Source: Leucoraja erinacea (Eukaryota). From it: a stretch of 64,000 nt of DNA. The position numbers and the translations under genes were made by a program. Numbering within the stretch: position 1 is the stretch's first letter; the number at the start of each line of letters is the position of its first letter. The notes below the pieces were generated by a model. The model had not been told where the DNA came from. It was given only the letters and a program-made list of their open reading frames with translations, and ran no database searches. The DNA lies in contig NC_073408.1 in the NCBI RefSeq assembly GCF_028641065.1, forward strand, positions 12,152,001 to 12,216,000, given 5' to 3'. This document shows positions 10,491 through 60,916 of the stretch, in pieces.

Positions 10491-10682
10491 CCAGGTTGAG
10501 TGGAGACTGGTTGAGTGGAACTTAGCAAGTTCCACTCAACCAGTCGTGTTGCACTTTTAACCTAGAAACAAGGAACATCAGATGCTAGTTTATTTAAAAA
10601 AGTCTTTATTGGCAAATAAAAAGTTAAAGTGTTTTTTGTGGCATGTGGGAGACTAGATGTAACTCAGCGGATCAGGCAGCAT

Positions 10683-10823
10683 GTGTAGGAAGGAACTGCA
10701 GATGCTGGTTTCGAAGATAGACATAAAATGCTGGAGTAACCTAGCAGGACAAGCAGCATCTCTGGAGAGAAGGAATGGATGACGTTTCGGGTCGAGACCC
10801 TTCCTCAGACTGGTCAGCAGTCT
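10683..10823 (-). mobile_element. Penelope-terminus-derived short element nested in an older related palindromic element (~10567-10965)
   Basis: 13-bp TSD gatcaggcagcat at 10670-10682 and 10824-10836. Contains an intact hammerhead-like core on the minus strand. Confidence 0.75.
10781..10808 (-). ncRNA. Putative minimal type I hammerhead ribozyme motif
   Basis: Reverse complement: CTGAGGA-A-GGGTC-TC-GACCC-GAAA-CGTC. Has CUGANGA and GAAA boxes, stem II, palindromic ACGU stem III and a GUC cleavage triplet. Stem I is weak. Confidence 0.55.
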
Positions 10824-12102
10824 GATCAGGCAGCATCTGCGGAGAACATGGATAGGTGATGTTTTGGTTCGGGACCATTCTTAAGACAAAGTACAAACAT
10901 CACCTAACCGTGTCCTCCACTGATGCTACCTGTCAGGCTGAGTTACTCCAGTACTTTGTGTTTTGTGCTTTTAATCCGCACTGCAATTCTCAAGCTTAAA
11001 GAAAATGCCAGAATCCACATTCTGACCAGAAATGGAACAAATAAACTTTAGCATGAGGGAAAAAACTGGCCAGCAGGGACCACATTCAAAACATCACATA
11101 ATCGGCCATCTTTAATTCACTTCTGGTTTCAGAATTGGTATCGGAAGGATTCTATTCATCTCCGATATAGCTTCTCCTTGCTCTTTTGGTGTGTTTCTGA
11201 ATCCTATTCCTTATTTGTAAGATTTTCATTAACCCATGCTTTATTAAATATTTAATGAGAGAGAAAAAGTTTAGAGGTACAAACACAAACAGGTGTGACT
11301 AGTGTAGATGGGGCATCTTGGTCAGCATGGGCAAATTGGGCCGAAGGGCCTATTTCTGTGTTGTATGACTCTCTGATCATTTTCTTAGCTTTTGGAACAT
11401 TAGGAGAAAGAAAGTTTAATCTTATATCATTCATGGTAATCTAAGTCAATGGCAATGAACGAGAGCTCGCCTTTTGGTGTGTTTTAAGGTAATCATTGCA
11501 CTCAATCAGTGTACAAGTTGGATCTCTAAACACCAACTGAACTGGGTCAATAGATAGTAGTTGATCAATAGCTTTTGGCTAGATAATTTTTCTCCAAAGA
11601 AGGGATAGGGAATCTTTTCTGTTCATCTGAAGACTGGGATCTAGCCTTGATAACAGGTGACAGCATAATATGATTGATCGGGATCTGGTAGCTCATTTTA
11701 TAATGCTCTCCATTCTTGTTTGCAAATTGCTTCTCTATCCTATTTTGAATGACAGGAGAGTTGCTTTAAATGTTCAAGTCTTTTGTGGAGGAAAGGTGTA
11801 ATTGAGCCATTTAACATTATGGCTAGAGGGCTCTAAACAGCCTCTGCAAAAGGGAATGGCTTCCTACTCAGTTTACAATTTAATAGCACAATCTGTCATG
11901 AACAACAAACAATAATTGAGGTTGAGAAAACAGATTAGGTAACAATAATGGGTTATACAAAACTCTCCTGCAATTTTTTCAACTGTCTTCCGTAGAAAGC
12001 CAATTATAACACAATGCAATATATTAATTTTGAGCGATATTTAATAATAGCAAATGCAGTGAAGGTCAATGATTAAAGTTAATGTTTGGACTTAACATGG
12101 TC

Positions 12103-12412: not shown

Positions 12413-12624
12413 GTCTAATCTATAACAGAATGATTTTCAAAAAAAAAAATCTTTATTAGCAAATAAAAAGTTAAAATGTTTTTTTGTGGCACGTGGGAGC
12501 CAATTTGTAAGATATTCTGGTCGGATATACCAAGAGAGGTTTTCTGAGCATATTTAGCAATTATAGCAAATTAAGAAGAAATCTGATGAGTAAATTTGAG
12601 TGCATGATGAACAGTCAGAAAATA

Positions 12625-13112
12625 GCGTCCGCTGCTCTAGATGTCAGCAGATCTATATCGGTGAGACCAAGCGGAGGTTGGGCGATCGTTTCGCCGAACA
12701 CCTCCGCTTGGTCCGCAATAACCAAGCTGACCTCCCGGTGGCTCAGCACTTCAACTCCCCCTCCCACTCCGCCTCCGACCTCTCTGTCCTGGGTCTCCTC
12801 CATGGCCACAGCGAGCAGCACCGGAAATTGGAGGAACAGCACCTCATATTCCGTTTGGGGAGTCTGCACCCCAGGCATGAACATCGACTTCTCCCAATTC
12901 TGTTAGTCCTTGCTGTCTCCTCCCCTTCCTCAGCTCCCCTGCTGTCTCCTCCCACCCTCCAGCCTTCCGGCTACTCCTCCTTTTCCCTTTCTTGTCCCCA
13001 CCCACCCCCACCCCTGATCAGTCTGAAGAAGGGTTTCGGCCCGAAACGTTGCCTATTTCCTTCGCTCCATAGATGCTGCTGCACCCGCTGAGTTTCTCCA
13101 GCTTTTCTGTGT
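12625..13112 (+). mobile_element. Penelope-like retroelement, 5'-truncated (GIY-YIG endonuclease part plus 3' terminus)
   Basis: RCSRCQQIYIGETKRRLGDRFAEH...PVAQHFN...LEEQHLIFRLGSLHP is a PLE GIY-YIG domain. 15-bp TSD aacagtcagaaaata at 12610-12624 and 13113-13127. Confidence 0.92.
13023..13050 (+). ncRNA. Putative minimal hammerhead ribozyme motif in the Penelope 3' region
   Basis: CTGAAGA-A-GGG-tttcgg-CCC-GAAA-CGTT. PLEs are known to carry minimal type I hammerheads. Confidence 0.55.
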
Positions 13113-13914
13113 AACAGTCAGAAAATACATGTAGCGATGCTTGGTTCTGAAAAGGGATCGGGTACTTCCTATCAAGGTTTAGGTTTATTATTGTCATGTG
13201 CACCAAAGTACAGTGAAATGCTTTGTTTGCATGCTATCCAATCAAATCATGTGATACTATACATAAATGCATCCAGGCCAAACTCAAGTGCAACAAGCAG
13301 AGTGAAGGGAAAGATACAGAATGCAGAACAATGGATAATCGAGGGCAAGTGATGCCAGATCTGCCCAGATGATTACGCAGTCTAAGAGATGCATGTAAGA
13401 TAAGAGAACATCTGGCTGAATGGAGGAAAAAAAACATGAAAATGGAAATAAAAAGGGCAAAGGCACAGTGTAATAACTAAGATAAAGGGTCTCTAGGCCT
13501 TCAATAGTGGTTTGCCTGAGGACCGATGAGGATAATTAGGTTTCAACCTGGCGGTTCTTTAGTGGGGATATGAAGCACAGCTGAGGCTTTAGATAAGGAC
13601 CGTGTTTTAGGAAGAGGGTGAAGTGGGTATTAGGTGATTTGATAAGATAAACATTGGCTGGACATGGGTGTAACAGTGGAGAAACGAAAACCATTATCAC
13701 CAGATAATCAGTTTGGTGGGAAAGCGTTCGGGTACATCATTCAGGAAGAACATAAACAGTCAATTAAATATGCGCAGCCCAATAAAGAAGTTCTACTACA
13801 GATGTATTGAAGGGAAATTAGGCTTGGTTGAATTAATTGCTGTCAAGATAAATGAGAATTTAAGAGATAATGTAATGGATGTGGACTTCCCAACGACTTT
13901 TGATAAAATAACGA

Positions 13915-21399: not shown

Positions 21400-21942
21400 C
21401 GGACGTGGCGTCGAAGGACGAGAAGCCGAAGCAAAGAAGTCGAAGCCAAATAGCCGAACGGAAATGAAGCCGAAACACCAACAAACCGAAAGGGCGGGAT
21501 GCCTAAAAGCCAACGAACTGAAAGGCTGTGTCGCCTAAAAGTAAACTCACCAAATCGCCGCTCTGCCGAAACGCCACCTAACCAAAAGGCTGCGTTGCCG
21601 ACAAGCCAACTAACCGAATGTCGCTCTGCCGAAAAGTCAAATAATGGCTTGTGTGGGAAAATGACCCCCACCCTTCCGTCTCCACCGGCTAGCGATGTGA
21701 TGGACGTGGGGGTCTGGTACAATCTCTGACATGACCTGCCCCCCCGGCGACGTCATGTCCGTTATTTGACTTTTCGGCAGAGCGGCATTCGCTGAGTTTG
21801 TTTTTAGGCGACGCAGCCTTTCGGTTCGTTGGCTTTTAGGCGTCCTGCCCTTTCGGTTCGTTGACGCTTTGGCTTCGTTTCCATTCGGCTATTTGGCTTT
21901 GACTTCTTTGCTTCGGCTTATCGTCCTTCGACACCACGTCCG
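21400..21942. mobile_element. Foldback-type element with long modular inverted repeats
   Basis: Left arm cggacgtggcgtcgaaggacgagaagccgaagcaaagaagtc... is the reverse complement of the right arm ...gacttctttgcttcggcttatcgtccttcgacaccacgtccg over >170 bp. Arms are built from NNCCGAA-like units. Confidence 0.8.
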
Positions 21943-25571: not shown

Positions 25572-25978
25572 GGCTTGGCGATCGTTTCGCCGAACACCTC
25601 CGCTCGGTCCGCACTAACCAACCTGACCTCAGCACTTCAACTCCCCCTCCCAATCCGTATCCGACCTCTCTGTCCTGGGCCTCCTCCACGGCCAGAGCGA
25701 GCAACACCGGATATTGAAGGAACAGCACCTCATATTCCGCTTGGGGAGTCTGCACCCTAGTGGCATGAACATTGATTTCTCACAATTCTGTTAACCCTTG
25801 CTGTCTCCTCCCCTTCCTCAGCCCTCGGGCTCCTCCTCCTCCTTTTTCCTTTCTTCTCCCCGCCTCCCCCCATCCCCTATCTGTCTGAAGAAGGGTTTCG
25901 GCCTGAAACGTTGCCTATCTCCTTCGCTACCTAGATGCTGCTGCACCCGCTGAGTTTCTCCAGCACTTTTGTGTACCT
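25572..25978 (+). mobile_element. Penelope-like retroelement, second 5'-truncated copy
   Basis: LGDRFAEHLRSVRTNQPDL, highly similar to 12625-13112. 12-bp TSD tcgcaattagat at 25560-25571 and 25979-25990. Hammerhead-like core at 25885-25912. Confidence 0.9.
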
Positions 25979-26952
25979 TCGCAATTAGATCACTCATTAA
26001 TCTTCTTTACTAAAGTGAATGCAAATCTATTGTCCACTAAACTTTCTCATAGTTCTCCAGTATTGCACTCTCTCACACACTGGTGCTAAAACATAAGCAA
26101 CACTTTAGGTGCAATTACATCGTGGAAGATAATACTTGTTTTAAAGATTGCTAAATAAAGATTTCAGCAGTTAGGTAATGATAACTCTATCAAGGATGAA
26201 GGGAAAAAAAACTTAAATTAAACACTATAAAAGAATATTTTTTTTTGCCTATAACTAAAATGAATCATAGTCAGCCCTATATCGGTAAACAGACAGCAAC
26301 AAGGTAAGAAACACTCAGCACCAACCAGTACTGTTTGGTTTACTGTATTGACAAAATTGCTTTCTGCAACATCTGAATTGTTCCAATCCTATTAATATAA
26401 GCCATACTTTATAATCCTCAGACTTATATGATTTCCCAATTTTCTGTTGATTACATTGCAGTGGAATCCAGTTAGTTTAAGCTTCGCTCCGCAATCTTAC
26501 CCATAGTCTCACGTGACCTCCTCAATGTTGTGACTAATAAAGCAGAGTCAGATGGCATAATTCAGTATGAAGGGCAGCAATACAAACCGCTTCATGCTTA
26601 AATGAAAAAGGTTGGCATGGTTTGCGGTTGTGAAGGATTAAGGCGTTGAAATACCTTGACTGTGTGTACATCAGCTAAATATGAACAATTACCACAGAAT
26701 AAGATGAAAATCACTGTACTGGAAGTTCTACCAAGTAGTTCACAAAGCATCTGCTTCATAATATAAGATGTGTCTATACCGAGGCTCATTAAAGTCTGCA
26801 CAGTAAATAAAAATTGTGCTTGTTAATCTGGTGACAGAAACAAAACTCCAAGCCATCTGCTCTTTGCTGATTATCTCAGTATGTCTGCACAACACCATGG
26901 CGGGTCACCGTGGCTTAAGATGTAGCAGTGTCTGCTCTCAGTTTGGAGTTTT

Positions 26953-37390: not shown

Positions 37391-38689
37391 TCTAGCTGAA
37401 GTTGAAAGTACTTGCATCAAGGGCAGTATCTCACCTGGGAAATTAGTTGAGGCACTCCTTTCAGCAGACTGCCTCTCTGTCCTTGACAACCATTCCTCTA
37501 CCTTTGACTATCAGTGGGCAGCGATTGGAGTTTTGGCTTTAGAGGCTTGTAACAGTGCTGAAGAACAACAGATGTAATTATCAGCCGGTTGCTGGATCTC
37601 CTGCCTTCTTTTCACCGACCATCTGCCTTTTGGGCTTTTTTACAATTAATCTTCAGTGCCAGCACAACAGTTTCATCTCCCATGAGACACGGTGGAGTTT
37701 CCACTACAAGAACACCCTGCGTTTGGGTTTAATTAGCTCATGAGTCTTCCGATTGCTTTCACAAACTAATTCTGTTCATTTCTGGCAGAGAGGCAAAGAA
37801 TATCTTCACAGCGACTACAATGGCGGACTATAGTGCAGTTTGAGTGCTGTTGATACATCATGCTTGTTGTTGAATGGCAATTGTCAGCGATGCACCTTGA
37901 GACCAACAGCATTGATTTTCCTGTGGCAATGTTTTGTTGCTTTGGGTGTTTAGGGACCTGACTGACGAAGGGAACAGCGCAGATGACAGAGTGGTCAGTT
38001 CAACAGTTATTGGTGCTTGTTGTGATATGGTTGATGCAGGCATCCTTCTTGTTACTCACTCAGACAGTGATGCAACCTGACTGCTGACATTGTCTGATCA
38101 GTGATGTTGCTATGAGGTCTGATATTTATGGTGTTGGTGATAAATCAGCATTTCATCAAGAGGAGGGCTCCACTGGAGTAGGCTGTCCCTGTTTGTTGTA
38201 TATTAATATTGTTTTGCAGTTCTTGGATTTTGCACAACTATCTTGCACTATTTTGCTGTTTTGCACTTGTTGTATCTAGTGTTGTATTTATCATTACTGT
38301 GTATGTACTTTTTACTCTCCGAGCTTCACATGGACAAGGAATTTCATTGGTGTAAACCTAATCTAATCAGTCAAACTTAATTCCATTATGTTCTTTAAAA
38401 TTCCTTGGGGTTGCTTATTTCATTAAGGTCAAAAATGCAGTGTAACAGGTAAGCTTAGTTCAACCTTGTTGGCGGCAGTCATGTTTAGCTGCTACTTTCA
38501 TTTTCCTTCCAGTGAGCAGGCTGGTGCTCTATAGGATGGCATCTAAATGGATTATTAATAATAGTAGTGGTATAGAGTTGCTCTACTTTAGTGCCTTTCC
38601 CCTTACAATCAGCCCACTTTCGTGAGAAGATGTTGCCAACCATTTGTCGTCACCATTTATTTATAACTAAGCCACCTATTAAGATGTGT

Positions 38690-38861
38690 AGGAAGGAACT
38701 GCAGATGCTGGTTTACACCGAAGATATGCTGGAGTAACTCAGCGGGACAGGCAGCATCACTGGAGAGAAGGAATGGGTGATATTTCGGGTCAAGGGGGTC
38801 TCGACCCAAAACGTCACCCATTCCTTCTCTCCAGAAATTGTGCCTGTTCCGCTGAGTTACT
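38690..38861 (-). mobile_element. Palindromic Penelope-terminus derivative (second subfamily)
   Basis: Inverted arms ggagtaactcagcgggacaggc...aaggaatgggtga / tcacccattccttctctccag...gctgagttactcc. Degenerate TSD ccacc(t/a)at(t/g)aagatgtgt at 38672-38689 and 38862-38879. Confidence 0.75.
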
Positions 38862-38964
38862 CCACCAATGAAGATGTGTGGTTTCTGCAGGTCCGTAATA
38901 ACCTGGTTGAAAAACTCTACTGATTCCAGATGCAATCAGGTTCAAGCAGTTAACAAATAGATAG

Positions 38965-39126: not shown

Positions 39127-40650
39127 AACTGCATCAATTTACTTTATTAACAATGTACTGGACTATTTAGTTGCTGTGACCTTTTAAGGTTTAAGGGCAC
39201 ACTGGATGCAGTAAGCAAATCCGTTTTGCGCATGTGATGGGATGGGATCATGGGAACTGATAGGACTGTGTTAATTTTAGAAAGCTGATTACTGAAGAGC
39301 GAACCTGGGGCAGTGATTGCAGTGACAACATCTGGTGCAGTATCCAGGAATGATTTTGTTTTGATAATTTGCCTCTGCTAATCTGGTTCTTAGCGGAGAG
39401 CTTATTGGAATACAATTCGAGATGGCCGTAATTCCACTCTGCTCTGTTTCAAGTGGGTTTACAGATTAGCAAAGAGACAGACTCACAATATTAAATTTTA
39501 AGGGAGAAAGTTCACAGGATTCAAATAAGCAGATGAAAGCCATGGAAAAAAATTAAGTTTATTATTAACAACATGAGTGGGATTTATTGATAGTTTTTAA
39601 TGCCATAACAAAAAGATATGATAGCACAGTGAATAGAACGCCCCTTGCTATCTCAAATAGTTTAACCATTTTTATACTGTTAGACTACCACCAATTCAAT
39701 TATTCATGTGTATCGAAGTACAGTGAAGAGCTTTTTTGTTGTGTGCTAGCCAGTCAGCGGATACACTATATGTGATTACAATCAACCATCCACAGTGTAC
39801 AGATATAGGATAAAGGGAATAACATAGCATCATTTTGCCCAGAAACTGGTCCACCTAGATTGGGTAATGCTGATGTTTAAATCGACCTTATGTGCTTGGA
39901 CTCAGGTCAGTGAAGGCTAACATGTGAGTGAAAATTGTATATTAGCCTCTGTGAAGAGGGTTTTGTTTGATAAATCACTGGATTCAGATAACAGTTTTGA
40001 TTCACACAGTAATTCATTACACTACTGAATAAGCGACACGCACTCATGTAACCCCGAATATCCCCGAAGGCACTCGCCAACCCCGCGTTTACAGCAGAGC
40101 ATGCCACAGGGTGTTTCTACATACACTCACATAAACACGTATACACTCGCAAACTCATCAGAGCACGCCACAGGATGTTTCTGTTCAAGGCCACCTGGCA
40201 CCGTTTGCAACACGGATCAAGGCTGAGGTTCTCTCACTGAAAGAGCACCCAACACCATCCTTTATGGCATTTCTTAGCAGAGCAGAACACGCCACTGCCC
40301 CATCGCTGTGCCAATTATAAGGCCACCTTGTCTGCAACATTTCTGGCAGGCGGCGTGGGTAGTCTACCCAACTATTGCTGTTGTGTTTTGTTCACCAACA
40401 TAACCTTTTCCCCATAGAATAGCCAGGGAAAGGCTGCATTCCCAGACAATGCAAGGTCGTCTAGGAGATAACGCATCTGAATCTTGTTTTCGAGAGGCTA
40501 TGGAATGTAGGGCTGCTAACTTAGCTGATAACTCCATTTCATATTTTACCTGAAATTGTCAGTTTAACCCTTACACTACATGTTTAATTACACCAGTAAG
40601 AAAGTCTTATTGAAATTCAATAGAATCCCATTCAGACCACATCTGCATTA

Positions 40651-40809
40651 TAGACACAAAATGCTGGAGTAACTCAGCGTGAAAGGCAACATCTCTGGAG
40701 AGAAGGAATGGGTTATTCATTCTCTCCAGTGATGCTGCCTGTCCCGCTGAGTTACTCCAGCATTTTGTGTGTATCTTTGGTTTAAACCAGCATCTGCAAT
40801 TCTTTCCTA
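40651..40809 (+). mobile_element. Palindromic Penelope-terminus derivative (second subfamily)
   Basis: Inverted arms acacaaaatgctggagtaactcagcg... / ...cgctgagttactccagcattttgtgt. Degenerate TSD caca(t/c)ctgca(t/g)ta. Confidence 0.75.
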
Positions 40810-43632
40810 CACACCTGCAGTATTGTGTACAGTTCTGATATTTTACTCCAGAGTGGGAAGCTGCAATAGAGGCGATGTTCACTCTTTTCACTCTTCCCAT
40901 CTGTGGGGTCACTTGTTTGCCTCACAGAGGGCAATTGGATATTACCTAGCTGCATTATGCTTTAACTTAATGAGATGGCAAAAAATAATTAAATTCCATT
41001 GCTACATAATCCTGGGAATCTTCAAATCCTGCCACACAATATGACTGAGTGAAAAAAACATCTTGTGTAGTGCAATATGATTGTAATAACTAATGTTTGC
41101 CTCACCCGGGTATATGCCTGTGGAATGCACAATTGAAAAAAAAAGTCATGTCAGTACCTCAAAACTCACCAGGGGAATATGTCATTAAGTCGACTTGACG
41201 TTGTAAAGTAATGCAATACAACATCAGTGTGGGCCCAGCGTACAGCCGATCCTCATTACGGTCACTTAAGAAAATCAATTAAAAAATCTATGCTTTACAA
41301 TTGATGGCAACTGATTATAACAAAGGGCAAAACCGCTAGCTTGATATAAACATGAAGATTATTGAATTAAGACTTAATAACTTGAGACTCAAAGATTTGT
41401 GAAAGAATACATCGGAAACCTTTTTAATCCAGAAAGATTATCTGCTTGGTTTGAGGAAAGTACAATCCATGGCAATGTAGAAGGCAATTTTGTTTCTACA
41501 TGGATTTCTAAATATATGCACGGATGTACACAATGATGGGGCTTGCACTGAAGATCAATAGCCCCATCACAATGTGCTTAATCCTTTGTTCAAAAGCTAC
41601 ATATTTTAACTCAACAGCATTCCTACACATAAAGTAAGGGACAAATTGGTCTGTACCTCAGAATAGTTGTGCATTAAATTTATGGAGCTTTGTTGAATAG
41701 CTAATTAAATTTAATTTGCTGAGAAATGCACAAAAAAAGGTTATGTTACCAATGCTGTAAAAAAATTCTCATTAACTCTTTCCCAACATCACGATGACTT
41801 TTGAGGGTTTGCCTGCTGCTGTTATGGTTATTACTCGCTTTATTGATGGCCAGTTTCATTAGTTTTACTGTCCCGCTGCACCTTGTGTTTTGTTGCTTGA
41901 GTCTCCAGTAAAATGAATCATCTGCTAAGTGATAAGTCACCAGCATTTCGTTACATATGAAGAGGTGGACATACTGTAAGGTAACTGTGATGTGACAACA
42001 ATTTTAAAGAGAAATTAGTGCGAAATTTCAGCACTAATTTGTATTGACTACTAGTTCAAACCATCTCCAAGTGAGGTGGAGTAATGAGGTACCTTTCCAC
42101 TTTGTGACAATGTCACTGACAGGAACACATTGTACGTAATAGGAGTTACAGGGTCAACACATATGCAGGTTAATGTGCTGTTTGTAAATAAGTCACCAAC
42201 TCTGATTGTATTTGGACGTACAGTATATGTACTATTCACCTATGTATTTTTGAAAACATTGCATTCAGTCATGGGGAGAAACAATACAGGAATTATTTTT
42301 AATCTCCATTATGTTTTTATTGTAGTAGCAATCACAGAGGAGTGATATTAAGCTGGCTTCAAATGGGATACATATATCTTAGGCAGAGTTTCCTTTAATC
42401 AGGACAGGGGTGTAAGGTTAAATGTACTCTAACACTGACTAATAAAATCAGCATTAGACTAATTAAGTTAACACAAATGGGACCAATCCCCAATATCTTT
42501 ACTGCAGAATATTCTTCAGAAAATGTCCGCTTTACAACTGTAAGCTGTTACCTTTAGCTTTACAATAGAGTCTCTGCAACTTTATACCTGGCCACTTAAA
42601 GTATTTTTATGTGAATGCTCCATTGGGACCTCAGTTACAGTATTATATTAAACCACATTTCAGTTTTGAGGCATAACTCTTTTCAAAGATCTTGTAAAAA
42701 AAAAAGATGAGATTTCTCAGGATAGAGCATTGGGGGGGGAAAAGGTAATTGATTTCCATGTTTTCCGTTCTTTTCAATTCTTTAGTTGATTTCCCTGGAG
42801 TATAAACATAAACGCAGCGGAGTTCATTTGATAAATCCTCCAGAATTAGATAATGAGCAAAGTTAAATTCCTGGTCTTTCCCACAGCAGAGAAAGGTCTT
42901 CCTTTACTTGACTAAATTAAAAGTAACTAAAAGGGCTGTCCAGACCACTAGAGTTAGTTTAAGGAATCTTTTCAGAGCAGAGATGGGAACAATCTCAAAT
43001 ATGGAAATAATTTGAAATTGCATAATTTTTCAACAGCTGCAATCCTTAATTAAACAAGCATTACATTTACAAAATCAAAGATCACCTTTGTATATCTCAG
43101 TATTTTTTACTCCTGTGCTGTCTGAAAGTAATATCCACTCTTTCAGTTGATTTTTGTAAGTGTTCTTTATAAACACTGTGAGGTACTTTTGATGTTGGTC
43201 AATAGCATGAAATCCTAATATCAAAGTAGCAGTCCGTTGTATGGGCTGTTGCGTTGGTAACAGTGGAAGCATTAATCTGAAGAGAATGTTCAACGACTTT
43301 CTAATGCAGTATCAGCCATTTTACATGAATGCTCAGTTTCAAACGGTCCACCATGTATCCACTTACTAACGAGATTTCATATTTTCTTCATTTCTAAGAC
43401 CGATTATCCTTTCGTTTTGGTCCACTTCCTCCAAGTATAGCGAGGAAACACCATCAGAAGTGAGCCATTTGGATAAAAAGAGATAATGTATTGCTTTACC
43501 CACCAGTAAAGACACATGAATATTGTGAACTGGGCAATATTAGTTAAGGATCACATTCTGATATTACTTCCATTAAGTGAGACTATGATACGTATGAATG
43601 AATTCCCTTTCACTCAGCGCTTCTCTCACAAG

Positions 43633-44799: not shown

Positions 44800-45117
44800 T
44801 AGCCCTGTCCCACTGTACGAGTTCATTCAAGAGTTCTCCCGAGTTTGCCCTGATTCGAACTCGGAGATTTGCGGTAATGGCCGCTCGTTGGTACTCGGGG
44901 CTCTCGTGGACATTTTTCAACATATTGAAAAATCTTCACAAGTCTTCCCGAGCTTACCGCGTTTCCCGAGTACCTGCCGTTAGTGTTACGAGCCACTAAG
45001 AGACGTCCCCAAGCTCCGACGTACCCGCTAAGTACATTCTACGTGCTTCCACGAGTTTTTTTTTTTTTTTAAACTCGGGAGAGCTCTTGAATGAACTCGT
45101 ACAGTGGGACAGGGCTT
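44800..45117. mobile_element. Harbinger-like MITE, young
   Basis: 46-bp TIRs with one mismatch (agccctgtcccactgtacgagttcattcaagag(t/c)tctcccgagttt; 44801-44846 and 45071-45116), TAA on both sides. Confidence 0.85.
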
Positions 45118-45503: not shown

Positions 45504-45692
45504 GGACATAAAGTGCTGGAGTTATTCAGCAGGTCAGGCAGCATCTTTGGAAAAGATGGATAGATGTACACTTATCCATACCTCTCCCCTGATTCTCAGT
45601 CTGAAGAAGCATCTCAACCCGAAACGTCACATATTCTTTTTCTCCAGAGATGTTGCCTGACCCGCTGAGTTACTCCAACACTTTGTGTCTAT
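45504..45692. mobile_element. Palindromic Penelope-terminus derivative, decayed
   Basis: Inverted arms with the remnant ctgaagaa...cccgaaacgtc core at 45601-45628. Confidence 0.7.
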
Positions 45693-46781
45693 CCGTGGAC
45701 ACAAAAGAACCATTCTATTTCACAGTAGGGACACTACAGTAGTGCTTGGAATGGACAATGGTGAGAAACGTGCAGTAGGAGAGTGCACATTTACAAATTC
45801 ACGCCAAACCATACTCTGGGGGAAAGTAAGGGTTGTGTGTCTACGCTATTCTAAGCACTATTTGTGGACCAGATGTTGCAGTCAGTGTAGTCAGAATAAT
45901 TGGTGAATTGACCTATTCCCAGTATCGATGTTTCCTTTCCCTTCCTGAGAGGCACAATTATAACCCATAACAGCATGAGAAAGTCCCTTGGAAAGAAGTG
46001 TCATATTTCTGCATGGATCAGCCATTAGTTTATTGTGGTTATTAGTGCCCAGATGATAACAACATGTATCCAATCATAGCTGCTGAGGAAGCTAACTAAC
46101 ATTTTATTAACTAAGAGTCACTAGTCTGGTGTAAATTTCAGCCCCTGCTGTGGGACTGTTAAGCTTCAATACCTTGTCTAATGAATACGAAGGCACCTGC
46201 CAAGGCAGTCAAAGACTTTGGACGCATTCATTATCTCAACACTCATTACTGCGGGGAGAAATCATAGCAAGGTTAAACTGCACTCGTTTTACTGTGTGCT
46301 TGTGGTTCCATGTGCCGACACACAGATTTGCCTGTTCTATTTTCTGCTGCCTTTGCAGCTTGATACACTTGCTGAAGGTTAAACCAAGGAGAATTAGTCC
46401 CTCACACTGACTATACATATATAAAGCTTTTATTCCAGTGTTGAATGCTCAATAAAATTGATTTTCTGTAAACCTGGAAAATGCCTCCATCTGAAAGCAC
46501 GCAGACACATCTGGTTTAAAAGCTGAACTGGTGACTTTTGAATTGCAGAGGTAAATGGTGTCTTGAAACGGGCTGCTTTTATGTGCAATACCTTTGGTCT
46601 TCCAAATTAGCGGAGATGCTGAATGACTTTCATTTCAATGTCAAAATTACCTCCACTTCATTGAAAGAAAATCTTCTAAGGACTTAGTTTGTGAATTAAA
46701 TTTGTTGGAATATTGAACCACACATATTCAGGATGGTCCTGAGTGCAAACATTTTCTGAGCACATAAAGAAAAGCTATTAA

Positions 46782-47030: not shown

Positions 47031-47194
47031 TAAAGAAAACTAATTTCAGTCAAGATTACTGTATTCTCCAAATTTAAAAAGTGTGTTGGAAAAAAATGTG
47101 CTGATTTTCTTCCCAAAGTGGTCTATGTGCTTCACCCAGAAGACAATGGAACTGTCTGCCCAACATGGCTGCAAAGGCTAAGTTGCTGAATATA

Positions 47195-47360
47195 CAGTGC
47201 CCTCCATAATGTTTGGGGCAAAAAATGGCCTTTATTAAAATCTGACAATATGCACTTTAACCACATGTGATTTTTTTTCTATTACAAATCTCAAATTGTG
47301 GAGTACAGAGGCAAATAAATAAATGATGAGTCTTTGCACCAAGCATTATGGAGGACACTG
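47195..47360. mobile_element. Tc1/mariner MITE (166 bp)
   Basis: TA|CAGTGCCCTCCATAATGTTTGG...CCAAGCATTATGGAGGACACTG|TA. 28-bp TIRs with 3 mismatches and a TA TSD. Confidence 0.88.
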
Positions 47361-47539
47361 TATGACAAAGATCAATAGAAAAAGGAATGAGATATGGCTT
47401 TCCACCAATGGAAAGATAAAAGATTAACTTTGATGATATTGAAAGGTAAACCATCGCAAATGGTCAAATATAATTCTGCCTCTACTTTTCATGATCCTCT
47501 GTTCTTATAGATTAGTATTGTTATGATGCACAAGATGAT

Positions 47540-53021: not shown

Positions 53022-53203
53022 GGTACTCAAAAATGCTGGAGAAACTCAGCGGGTGCAGCAGCATCTATGGAACGAAGGAAATAGGCAACGTTTCGGCCCA
53101 AAATTTCCTATTTCCTTTGCTCCATAGATGCTGCTGCACCCGCTGAGTTTCTCCAGCATTTTTGTGTACCTTTGATTTTCCAGCATCTGCAGTTCCTTCT
53201 TAA
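53022..53203 (+). mobile_element. Palindromic Penelope-terminus derivative
   Basis: Hairpin arms centred on tttcggccc. TSD ataccta(a/g)atgacat at 53007-53021 and 53204-53218. Confidence 0.85.
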
Positions 53204-56962: not shown

Positions 56963-57352
56963 GGGTTGAATTGGGATCAGGGAGCTGTGTGGCAGCAGTT
57001 CACTCTGCTGCACCTCTACAGTGCCCACTTGAGAATGAACTTAGTAAGTAGCATGGTTGCAGCCTTGGAGGCTTTCTTGTAGATGTAGAGTCTTCATTTC
57101 TCAGATTCATCACTCAACCTATTATGCCATTGAAGTGGAGCACAGGAGTCATGTTTTCCATGCTATTGGTTTCAGGAGGGCCTCTTGAACAGTGATCCAG
57201 TGGAAGTGGCCAATGAGGTCAGCTCAAGGAGGAATTGGCTCTATAGCTGGAGCCACCGTTGAACATAAGACATATGTGTAAAGCAGAGGAAGGTGGGCAC
57301 TCAAATCATGCTTGTGCAATGAAATATGTCTGTGCATATCCTACACATAATA

Positions 57353-57539
57353 TGTTTAAGAAGGAACTGCAGATGCTGGAAAATCGAAGGTACACAAAAA
57401 AGCTGGAGAAACTCAGCGGGTGCAGCAGCATCTATGGAGCGAAGGAAAAAGGCAACGTTTCGGGCCGAAACGTTGCCTTTTTCCTTCGCTCCATAGACGC
57501 TGCTGCACCCGCTGAGTTTCCCCAGCTTTTTTGTGTACC
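57353..57539 (-). mobile_element. Palindromic Penelope-terminus derivative, young
   Basis: 76-bp inverted arms (57388-57463 and 57465-57540) with 2 mismatches. 14-bp TSD tcctacacataata at 57339-57352 and 57540-57553. Confidence 0.9.
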
Positions 57540-58176
57540 TCCTACACATAATAGTCTGGTGTGCACTTATGCATACTTCAGCAGGAAACATTGGATCAAA
57601 TTTAACAAGCATTGCCGTTCTCACAGGGTGGCAGCATTTTCATGAGTTGCGCATAAAATGTTCACAATTCAATGCTTGAGAGTATGGCCAGCTGATCCAG
57701 TTTGTGGGCATGAGTTTATCTGTTGATTTTTATGTTTGACCCTGGTTGTAACCGTTTCAGATACTGTCATTATCAGAAGCAACTCACAATTGTTCAAAAT
57801 AAAGTTTTCAGTTACTTATATGACTATTTTGCACTGCATCATAGAAAAAGCATTCCTTCCCTACTGTGCACTGAAGAGTTCGCCTGGAGCCATTTGAGTC
57901 TGAACTTAATTATGATGTGTGCTTGCGGATATAAACATCAACACCCACTTCTGTTAATGTGGCATCTACAGCTTTGCAAAAATAAACCTTGGTGCTTCAC
58001 AGGAACATTATCAAACAAATAAATTGGCACCAGACCATATATTAGAGCGCATGATTAAAGTATCAGGAAGAGAAATAGTTCTGGGAAGATTTTCCAGAAT
58101 AAAGAGCCTTGCACTTTTGCCAATTGTGGCACAATTAAGCTTAGAGATATTCTGGAGTCCAGAAATGGAAGGTTTG

Positions 58177-59523: not shown

Positions 59524-60060
59524 TTAGAGAGCAGATTCATAATGTATTTGGGGGACCTACTTCAGCAAACAGCAATCAAACTGGGGACCCACTGCAACAT
59601 CTTTGGACACTGCAACATCCTTCGGTGCAGCCCTGAATAGTGGGAGAGCAGATTCAAGTCAGGAGGTAAATATGACTGTATGAAACTTTCACGATGGCTT
59701 GATCAGCAATGACTAACTTTGAAAGTCCAAATCTAAACTGCAGATATTGTAAATCTGAAATAAAAACAGATGTGTTACCAGCATTTCCTACGTATTGCAT
59801 AGTTGTTCTGAGATTAGTTCTTTTCTTTCCAACTGATTGCAACATCTGCTGTAAACCATCACAATCATTTTAAATATTAGCTTTTTTAAGCGCACATTTC
59901 TGTAAATTATCTTGATATATTTAAGAGTGGCAACATTAATTACTAACTTTTGTTCATGCAACTAAAAATGGATTTACCAAAAAAAGAAATACTCAAAAAA
60001 CCTGGTGAAGGTGCTGGAGGTAGATGGTTTGCTGCAAGCCAGCAATTGAATTGTTCATGG

Positions 60061-60260
60061 ATACTAAAAGCTGGAGTAACTCAACGGGACAGGCAGCATC
60101 TCTGGAGAGAAGGAATGGGTGATGTTTCGGGTCGAGACCATTCTTCAGGGCTGAAACGTCACCCATTCCTTCTCTCCAGAGATGCTGCCTGCCCTGCTGA
60201 GTTAATCCAGATTTTTTGTGTCTACCTCCAGTTTAAACCAGCATCTACAGTTCCTTCCTA
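60061..60260 (+). mobile_element. Palindromic Penelope-terminus derivative (second subfamily)
   Basis: Inverted arms caggcagcatctctggagagaaggaatgggtga / tcacccattccttctctccagagatgctgcctg, with terminus cagcatctacagttccttcc. Confidence 0.75.
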
Positions 60261-60729
60261 GTTGATCATGTTGGGACTTTGAACAGTGTGCAACGCCCTA
60301 TGTATCGTGTGTTTATCAGCATGGTAAAATGAGAGTATTTTCTGTCACACGCTGGTTAATGCAGAGCACGTCAAGTATTAGGTATCCCCAGGGTTGGTGC
60401 TGAAACAGTCTGCTCGAGGTAGATGAAGAGTGGAAAAGGTCAATCGAGGGTGTGGTGGTTGGGGAGAGGGTCATTTGTCAGAGATCATTGGGCGGGGAGA
60501 AATGTTAAGATTGATCGTTACGTTCACTTGCTTGGGTGGGCTTGTTTTAGTAAACAAGGGTTGCAACCAGTGGTGTAGGTTGAAGGAGTAGTTGGTAATC
60601 CCACGACAGAAGGATTATTGGGTAAACCGGTTGCTGGACAGGTGTTGGTCAGCGCATAGGACATGATCCTAAATGGGAATGTAGTAGCAGGCACCCCAGA
60701 TCAGTAAGCCAACCAACTATCTTTCACAG

Positions 60730-60916
60730 TGTTTAAGAAGGAACTGCAGATGCTGGAGAATTGAAGGTACACAAAAAAGCTGGAGAAACTCAGCGGGTGC
60801 AGCAGCATCTATGGAGCGAAGGAAATAGGCAATGTTTCGGGCCGAAACGTTGCCTATTTCCTTCCCTCCATAGATGCTGCTGCACCCGCTGAGTTTCTCA
60901 AGCTTTTTTGTGTACC
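60730..60916 (-). mobile_element. Palindromic Penelope-terminus derivative, young
   Basis: Near identical to 57353-57539. Direct repeat accaactatctttcacag at 60712-60729 and 60914-60931. Confidence 0.9.

Follow-up and report, generated by a model that had tools for sequence, protein, structure and literature searches.

Minimal inverted Penelope insertions in Leucoraja erinacea: hairpins likely formed site by site from two cDNAs joined at a palindrome

Three short hairpins built from the 3' end of a Penelope element raise the question how two head-to-head copies of the same sequence come to be joined around a single base, and whether this happens anew at each site or the hairpin has become a mobile element of its own. 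They lie in a 64,000-nt stretch of the Leucoraja erinacea genome (NC_073408.1, positions 12,152,001 to 12,216,000; hereafter the window), at 53022-53203, 57353-57539 and 60730-60916. As originally predicted, each of them is flanked by its own target site duplication (TSD) of 14-18 bp.

Structure of the hairpins and of their parent element

The hairpin at 57353-57539 is given below in detail, together with the other two and with the related copies of the parent element in the window.

57339-57352: left copy of the 14-bp TSD, exact match to 57540-57553
57353-57387, minus strand: Penelope tail of about 35 nt, present on a single arm only; the sequence continues into the ORF leader in the full-length copy L278
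57388-57463, minus strand: tailed arm, the pLTR part downstream of the palindrome centre, 97.5% identical to 13033-13113
57457-57471: 15-nt palindrome common to both arms; its centre base, 57464, agrees with the tailed arm
57465-57539, plus strand: untailed arm, which by arm alignment stops at the proximal 3' end of the element
57540-57553: right copy of the TSD, 14 bp exact to 57339-57352
53022-53203, plus strand: second hairpin centred on the palindrome, with a right-hand tail, a damaged 15-nt centre and a 15-bp TSD with one mismatch (53007/53204)
60730-60916, minus strand: third hairpin centred on the palindrome, with a left-hand tail and a TSD of up to 18 bp (60712/60914)
12622-13113, plus strand: 5'-truncated untailed parent-family copy with a GIY-YIG C-terminal coding piece, 3' UTR and minimal hammerhead motif
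13023-13050, plus strand: minimal hammerhead motif recognized by its sequence, type I as in PMC4209133; the palindrome 13033-13047 overlaps the stem II loop and the GAAA core
25577-25979, plus strand: another 5'-truncated copy, assigned by similarity to the parent family

The fold-back structure with arms of up to 76 nt and a 1-nt loop was found at 57388-57463 and 57465-57540 (76 nt, 97% identity, 1 nt between the arms); however, the elements are not symmetric, because each carries the tail of about 35 nt on one arm. The arms of the other two hairpins measure 75 nt at 96% identity (60766-60916) and 67 nt at 94% identity (53022-53170). Numbered from the palindrome centre, one arm ends near +75 and the other near +110 in all three, hence the 35-nt tail on one side only. 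The central palindrome is likewise real, but its middle base, originally given as C, is C on the plus strand at 53097 and G at 57464 and 60841. The CUGAAGA half of the ribozyme core is absent from the hairpins, as had been stated. Regarding the target sites, 3 of the 18 bp of the TSD at 60730-60916 overlap the element end, and the TSD finder reported duplications of at least 11 bp in 5 of 400 random intervals. Microhomology between target and element, estimated with a rough script, amounted to 0-2 nt at most ends.

The palindrome was thought to exist already in the parent element, and it was indeed found at 13033-13047 inside the 5'-truncated copy. At 13031-13047 stem II has a UUCG loop that is reverse-complementary to the adjoining conserved CGAA; judged from this sequence, the putative ribozyme gives rise to the palindrome as a by-product. 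An older family (family B) has CUCG in place of UUCG and lacks the perfect palindrome. The core hammerhead motif was recognized by sequence in the parent pLTR. An Rfam search did not match the hammerhead and its sub-threshold, hairpin-shaped matches were dismissed as chance, while the single-strand fold prediction for the hammerhead was unremarkable.

A search of the 2.19-Gb genome with 12622-13113 found many near-identical copies carrying long open frames, hence the family has been active recently. Eight long-frame copies were retrieved for detailed reading. Open frames of 743 and 755 aa contain the RT motifs DKG and YIDD, a Cys-rich linker and a GIY-YIG-like C-terminus; the Pfam matches, RVT_1 with E=2.5e-6 and GIY-YIG with E=0.005, did not reach the Pfam cut-off. 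With an RT followed by a C-terminal GIY-YIG endonuclease, the parent has the organization of an endonuclease-positive Penelope-like element. A C-x4-C-x2-C motif, recognized by eye, precedes the GIY-YIG domain. Since a Cys-rich linker between RT and endonuclease is a feature of Neptune elements, also present in Nematis (PMC8557442), the linker suggests that the parent is of the Neptune type.

The full-length parent L278:1494-6540 consists of an inverted untailed pLTR, a pLTR, the RT/GIY-YIG coding region in two frames and a tailed pLTR, enclosed by a 16-bp TSD. Its pLTRs stand in partial tandem with an inverted 5'-truncated copy, which is the Penelope-like layout, and the pLTR tail is continuous with the ORF leader. 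The 3' ends of the family fall into two groups about 35 nt apart, in agreement with an optional tail of 30-40 bp. Inverted pairs of 1.2, 1.4, 2.5 and 6 kb have the identical one-tail layout with TSDs of 14-16 bp, and this layout spans sizes from 100 bp to 6 kb. Two loci showed peculiarities of their own: a Penelope frame is fused in frame to another RT fragment at L276, and short repeated pieces lie at the inverted junction of L277.

Junctions and arm identity across the genome

Inverted pairs were counted in an unselected sample of 120 stretches of 10 kb each on a fixed grid (1.2 Mb). It contained 21 inverted pairs and 28 solo copies of the palindrome-bearing family (family A). Exactly one tail was present in 20 of the 21 pairs, and 18 of the 21 had a TSD of 12-18 bp. 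According to a strict centre test, 8 of the 21 family-A pairs are joined at the palindrome compared with none of 73 family-B pairs (p=1.8e-6); a looser centre test (10/15 and 1/72) also picked up intact ribozymes and was replaced by the strict one. Two further family-A pairs join at overlaps of 4 and 2 nt. Collectively, these joins form a continuum governed by self-complementary sequence, in which the hairpin is the peak, and they support the palindrome as a genuine junction hot spot.

Genome-wide, exact matches number 1598 for the 29-nt hairpin junction and 15,187 for the intact-ribozyme 32-mer, and scaling from the sample gives an estimate of 6,000-29,000 hairpins per genome. The centre is A/T in 48 of the 1598 otherwise exact junctions, which suggests a mutable loop base. 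Ribozyme cleavage was considered as the cause of the join and rejected: the predicted cut at +10/+11 lies 10 nt downstream of the centre, and 1-2 of 101 5' ends are found there.

The inverted pairs of family B in the window have other junctions:

38687-38867, minus strand: joined at -5/-9 from the palindrome centre, at stem II
40650-40813, plus strand: joined at +11/+14
45505-45693, plus strand: joined at +25/-21 with a 45-nt spacer, without tail, TSD not significant
60057-60262, plus strand: joined at -17/+3

Folding back at or near stem II had been proposed for all four pairs (38690, 40651, 45504 and 60061); this was found for the one at 38690 alone, and the other three have no common junction. 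Their TSDs are degenerate or not significant. The family-B motif has two mismatches at the palindrome position, and the commonest join of the family is its own 7-nt palindrome at -21 (5 of 82). Arm ends of family B were placed on a 133-nt profile and are noisier than those of family A. Two side observations concern this family. Its tails lie on the right in 38 pairs and on the left in 18, although the orientation should be arbitrary, which might reflect chance or alignment bias; and at 10659-10961 nested family-B Penelope ends were found, with a tailed copy inside or beside an inverted pair.

Being short and non-coding, with inverted arms and high copy number, the hairpins resemble DNA MITEs moved by a DDE transposase, and they can be mis-filed as such or as microRNA precursors, as the sub-threshold Rfam matches illustrate. 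The original warning on this point was justified. The TSDs of 130 independent hairpins measure 11-19 bp in 111 cases (mode 14-15), 10 bp in 1 case and are missing in 18, and the ends are unequal, whereas a MITE has a short fixed TSD and matching ends. Moreover, the hairpins are 94-98% identical to the end of an RT/GIY-YIG element, making a MITE origin scarcely conceivable. Elements of another appearance are present in the window. The 316-bp element at 44801-45116 has terminal inverted repeats of 46 nt (98%) and an apparent TAA duplication; it is likely a MITE, which we take to be of the PIF/Harbinger type. The element of about 170 bp at 47192-47363, with terminal inverted repeats of about 30 nt flanked by TA, is likely a true MITE, presumably of the Tc1/mariner type, and forms a contrast to the hairpins. 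A further 543-bp element at 21400-21942 has 156-nt inverted arms of internal CCGAA-rich repeats.

The alternative raised at the beginning, one hairpin that turned into a non-autonomous element and is copied whole by the Penelope enzyme in trans, could account for 1598 exact junction 29-mers. It might also be read from a T-to-C substitution in the untailed arm of the 57353 element: when this element served as BLAST query, 22 of the 28 hairpins selected had the substitution. However, among 60 hairpins chosen without BLAST it was found once, and its 22 carriers cover both centre types and both main subfamilies; hence, we read its recurrence as ascertainment in the sampled loci. Furthermore, the diagnostic marks of each parent subfamily are present in both arms, and both centre types exist in each subfamily examined, the palindrome junction is one peak in a continuum, and the only loci with common private one-arm variants also have common flanks, i.e. 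are segmental duplicates. Descent from one hairpin with a fixed relation between centre and tail is thus not what these loci display. A separate family mobilized in trans, which the original prediction had entertained, is therefore very improbable, while re-copying of a small minority of hairpins is possible.

Formation de novo at each locus, the other outcome then envisaged, was to be recognized by symmetric variants such as the mirrored change at 57447/57476 (T15). Among the 1598 hairpins T15 is symmetric in 38 and one-sided in 6, where 1 and 80 would be expected if the arms were independent, which speaks for de novo formation. The variant is found in 267 of the 15,187 intact-ribozyme copies (1.8%), nine times the one-arm rate, hence it segregates among the source elements. 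CpG decay 9 nt from the centre, on the other hand, is one-sided at 156 loci and two-sided at 11 (4.5 expected). Similar results were obtained with 52 hairpins not picked by BLAST: they contain 28 symmetric variants compared with a shuffle mean of 4.4 and maximum of 14 (2000 permutations), and the main subfamily site is discordant between the arms in 3 compared with 25 in shuffles. Across 98 pairs, the arms agree at 702 diagnostic A/B sites and differ at 40. No family A/B chimeras were found among these 98 pairs; apparent ones turned out to be intermediate subfamilies, whose two arms agree in their pattern. The symmetric source variants and the later one-sided decay indicate that the arms were alike from birth and little converted afterwards.

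It might also be considered that the arms come from two unrelated RNAs and were homogenized later by gene conversion within the hairpin. Perfect hairpins are plausible conversion substrates, and symmetric CpG decays are more frequent than expected (11 observed, 4.5 expected). However, the contrast between T15 (38:6 symmetric) and CpG decay (11:156; p=1e-25) contradicts such conversion unless it acts only at the moment of insertion. In addition, the old family-B arms differ from each other by 18%, and the arms do not become more alike near the centre (differences of 3.8, 5.1 and 4.2%). We regard later homogenization as most unlikely.

One folded strand or two cDNAs

If a strand folds back, it can copy nothing beyond its own sequence, hence the tailed arm must give the centre base and contain the other arm. 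In the 130 independent insertions the centre base came from the tailed arm in 68 and from the untailed arm in 55, with 7 unscorable. The split was 51 to 46 without the BLAST-picked loci, 11 to 9 in the youngest subfamily, and 6:5 among 12 T15 hairpins. Moreover, the untailed arm extends further 5' in 12 of 18 (family A) and 26 of 56 (family B) uneven one-tail pairs, i.e. 38 of 74 are non-nested. The simple snap-back of one cDNA at the palindrome, one of the two origins first proposed, does not agree with these counts. They are the outcome expected of two separately primed cDNAs, for which they provide strong support without closing the question.

The published reading of such structures is a folding one, in which a single strand, either a cDNA or (as proposed in PMC3846280) an antisense RNA, pairs with itself at the palindrome and serves as its own template. 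With a later inversion of the arms that scrambles centres and un-nests uneven pairs, it could be extended to the present data. It accounts just as well for source variants mirrored in both arms and for the hot spot at the palindrome, and the cDNA strand is predicted to form a small hairpin, with a z of only -1.07. A changed centre base also occurs at one duplicated locus: the centre is kept in 7 of 8 duplicate pairs, a count that omits L192/L267 as a single genomic place, and differs in the most diverged pair, L270/L271. The latter two (C1 near 160.97 and 161.05 Mb) are the same insertion with centre C and G, respectively, which implies a later point change or local inversion. The point estimate for later centre flips is about 14% of hairpins, and the upper 95% bound of 40% is still compatible with the observed 46 of 97 (p=0.07). 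However, folding of one strand needs nearly saturated flips, under which 7 unchanged pairs out of 8 have p=0.035, and the even split of the youngest subfamily is already established. It is also at variance with the 156 one-sided as opposed to 11 symmetric CpG decays beside the centre, and with the non-nested pairs, some of which have arms hundreds of bases long. Finally, copy-back would have to halt just before the tail in 20 of 21 cases. We consider this explanation rather unlikely.

Hence, our preferred reading is that the hairpins are minimal inverted Penelope insertions, likely formed de novo at each site by palindrome annealing of two cDNAs from the same source, which we infer to be primed at both nicks. 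Two target nicks about 14-15 nt apart would each prime one cDNA, the distal start giving the tail and the proximal start the untailed arm. Many cDNAs would end some 20 nt upstream of the centre, where they probably reach the RNA 5' end. Both cDNAs would then finish in the same self-complementary 15-mer, with 7+7 bases pairing around one mismatch. Flaps of about 13 nt containing CUGAAGA would be trimmed, repair might fix either centre base, and fill-in would leave the TSD of 14-15 bp. The template could be a single RNA molecule or a pair of transcripts from the same locus; both fit.

In this regard, the 5' ends of the copies were inspected. They fall at -15 to -24, the positions of 13016-13025 in the window, in 19 of 30 intact-core family-A copies and in 14 of 28 solo copies (L046-L075 plus the unselected loci). 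The pile-up sits at TCAGT, which we take to resemble an initiator. Judged from copy ends, it is probably an RNA start, in which case run-off at the 5' pLTR would account for the majority of short copies. RNA reads over the pLTR-ORF junction from two related organisms were dominated by short copies with genome-like ends and gave no pointer to a transcription start. Two other putative 5' ends were discarded: at -385 the reference sequence ended rather than the element, and the family-B pile at -22 was confounded by mapping on a family-A reference.

A more specific version, to which we give an even chance, is a Penelope-like double-ended target priming, in which a dimer would use two starts separated by 35 nt to copy one RNA onto each of the two nicked strands, after which the cDNAs would anneal. 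If true, the stumps would be a fossil record of cDNA joining, would overturn self-priming for inverted pLTRs and would mark the RNA start.

Relation to known inverted insertions

In L1 twin priming both target nicks prime cDNA and the products are joined at microhomology. The two L1 cDNAs cover different parts of the RNA, whereas here the same part is covered twice, which gives a hairpin. Among Penelope-like elements, one-tail inverted copies are standard, and the origin of the inverted ends is called undefined in PMC8557442. The hairpins are the shortest form of this known inverted insertion and an abundant by-product. The literature searched, largely the main texts of open-access papers, contained neither these hairpins in this animal group nor two-cDNA annealing in Penelope elements.

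Minimal hammerheads are known from the pLTRs of metazoan Penelope-like elements, including close pairs on opposite strands (PMC4209133). The hairpins resemble these and the non-LTR retrozymes (PMC4209133, bioRxiv 10.64898/2026.07.22.740005) in the kind of motif carried in the pLTR and as non-coding derivatives of Penelope-like elements. However, retrozymes are tandem units with complete ribozymes, whereas the hairpins are single inverted units without the CUGAAGA half of the core.

The purified protein of the Anolis element Poseidon, which belongs to a clade different from that of the hairpin parent, nicks and extends both strands in vitro; it is predicted to be a dimer, two RNA start sites flank the tail, and the template is uncleaved RNA (PMC11167929). 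The present family shares with Poseidon the putative starts flanking the tail and the hammerhead at the pLTR-ORF junction, and its 5' ends do not accumulate at the predicted cut (1-2 of 101), as for an uncleaved template. The annealing of two cDNAs gives a direct prediction for an existing in vitro system.

Among the closest counterparts are the inverted-pLTR insertions of the endonuclease-positive elements Pen2a and Pen3a of Adineta (PMC3846280). As in these (PMC3846280, PMC8557442), a head-to-head inverted copy carries a tail of 30-40 bp at one end and the whole unit is surrounded by a TSD, which is however 14-15 bp long here and 8-10 bp in Adineta. Unlike Pen2a and Pen3a, the insertions described here consist of two stumps of about 75-110 nt and exist in thousands of copies. 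Palindrome joins occur in both systems, since the inverted junctions of Adineta include a 15-bp overlap in Pen2a and palindromes of 18 and 38 bp; in PMC3846280 they are read as self-priming on an antisense template, a proposal left to experiment. In contrast to Adineta, about 4 in 10 junctions here fall at one and the same palindrome. One unpaired base in thousands of hairpins, together with a palindrome-less sister family as control, makes it possible to separate the models, and the resulting counts favour the annealing of two cDNAs over self-priming, the sole printed proposal found (PMC3846280).
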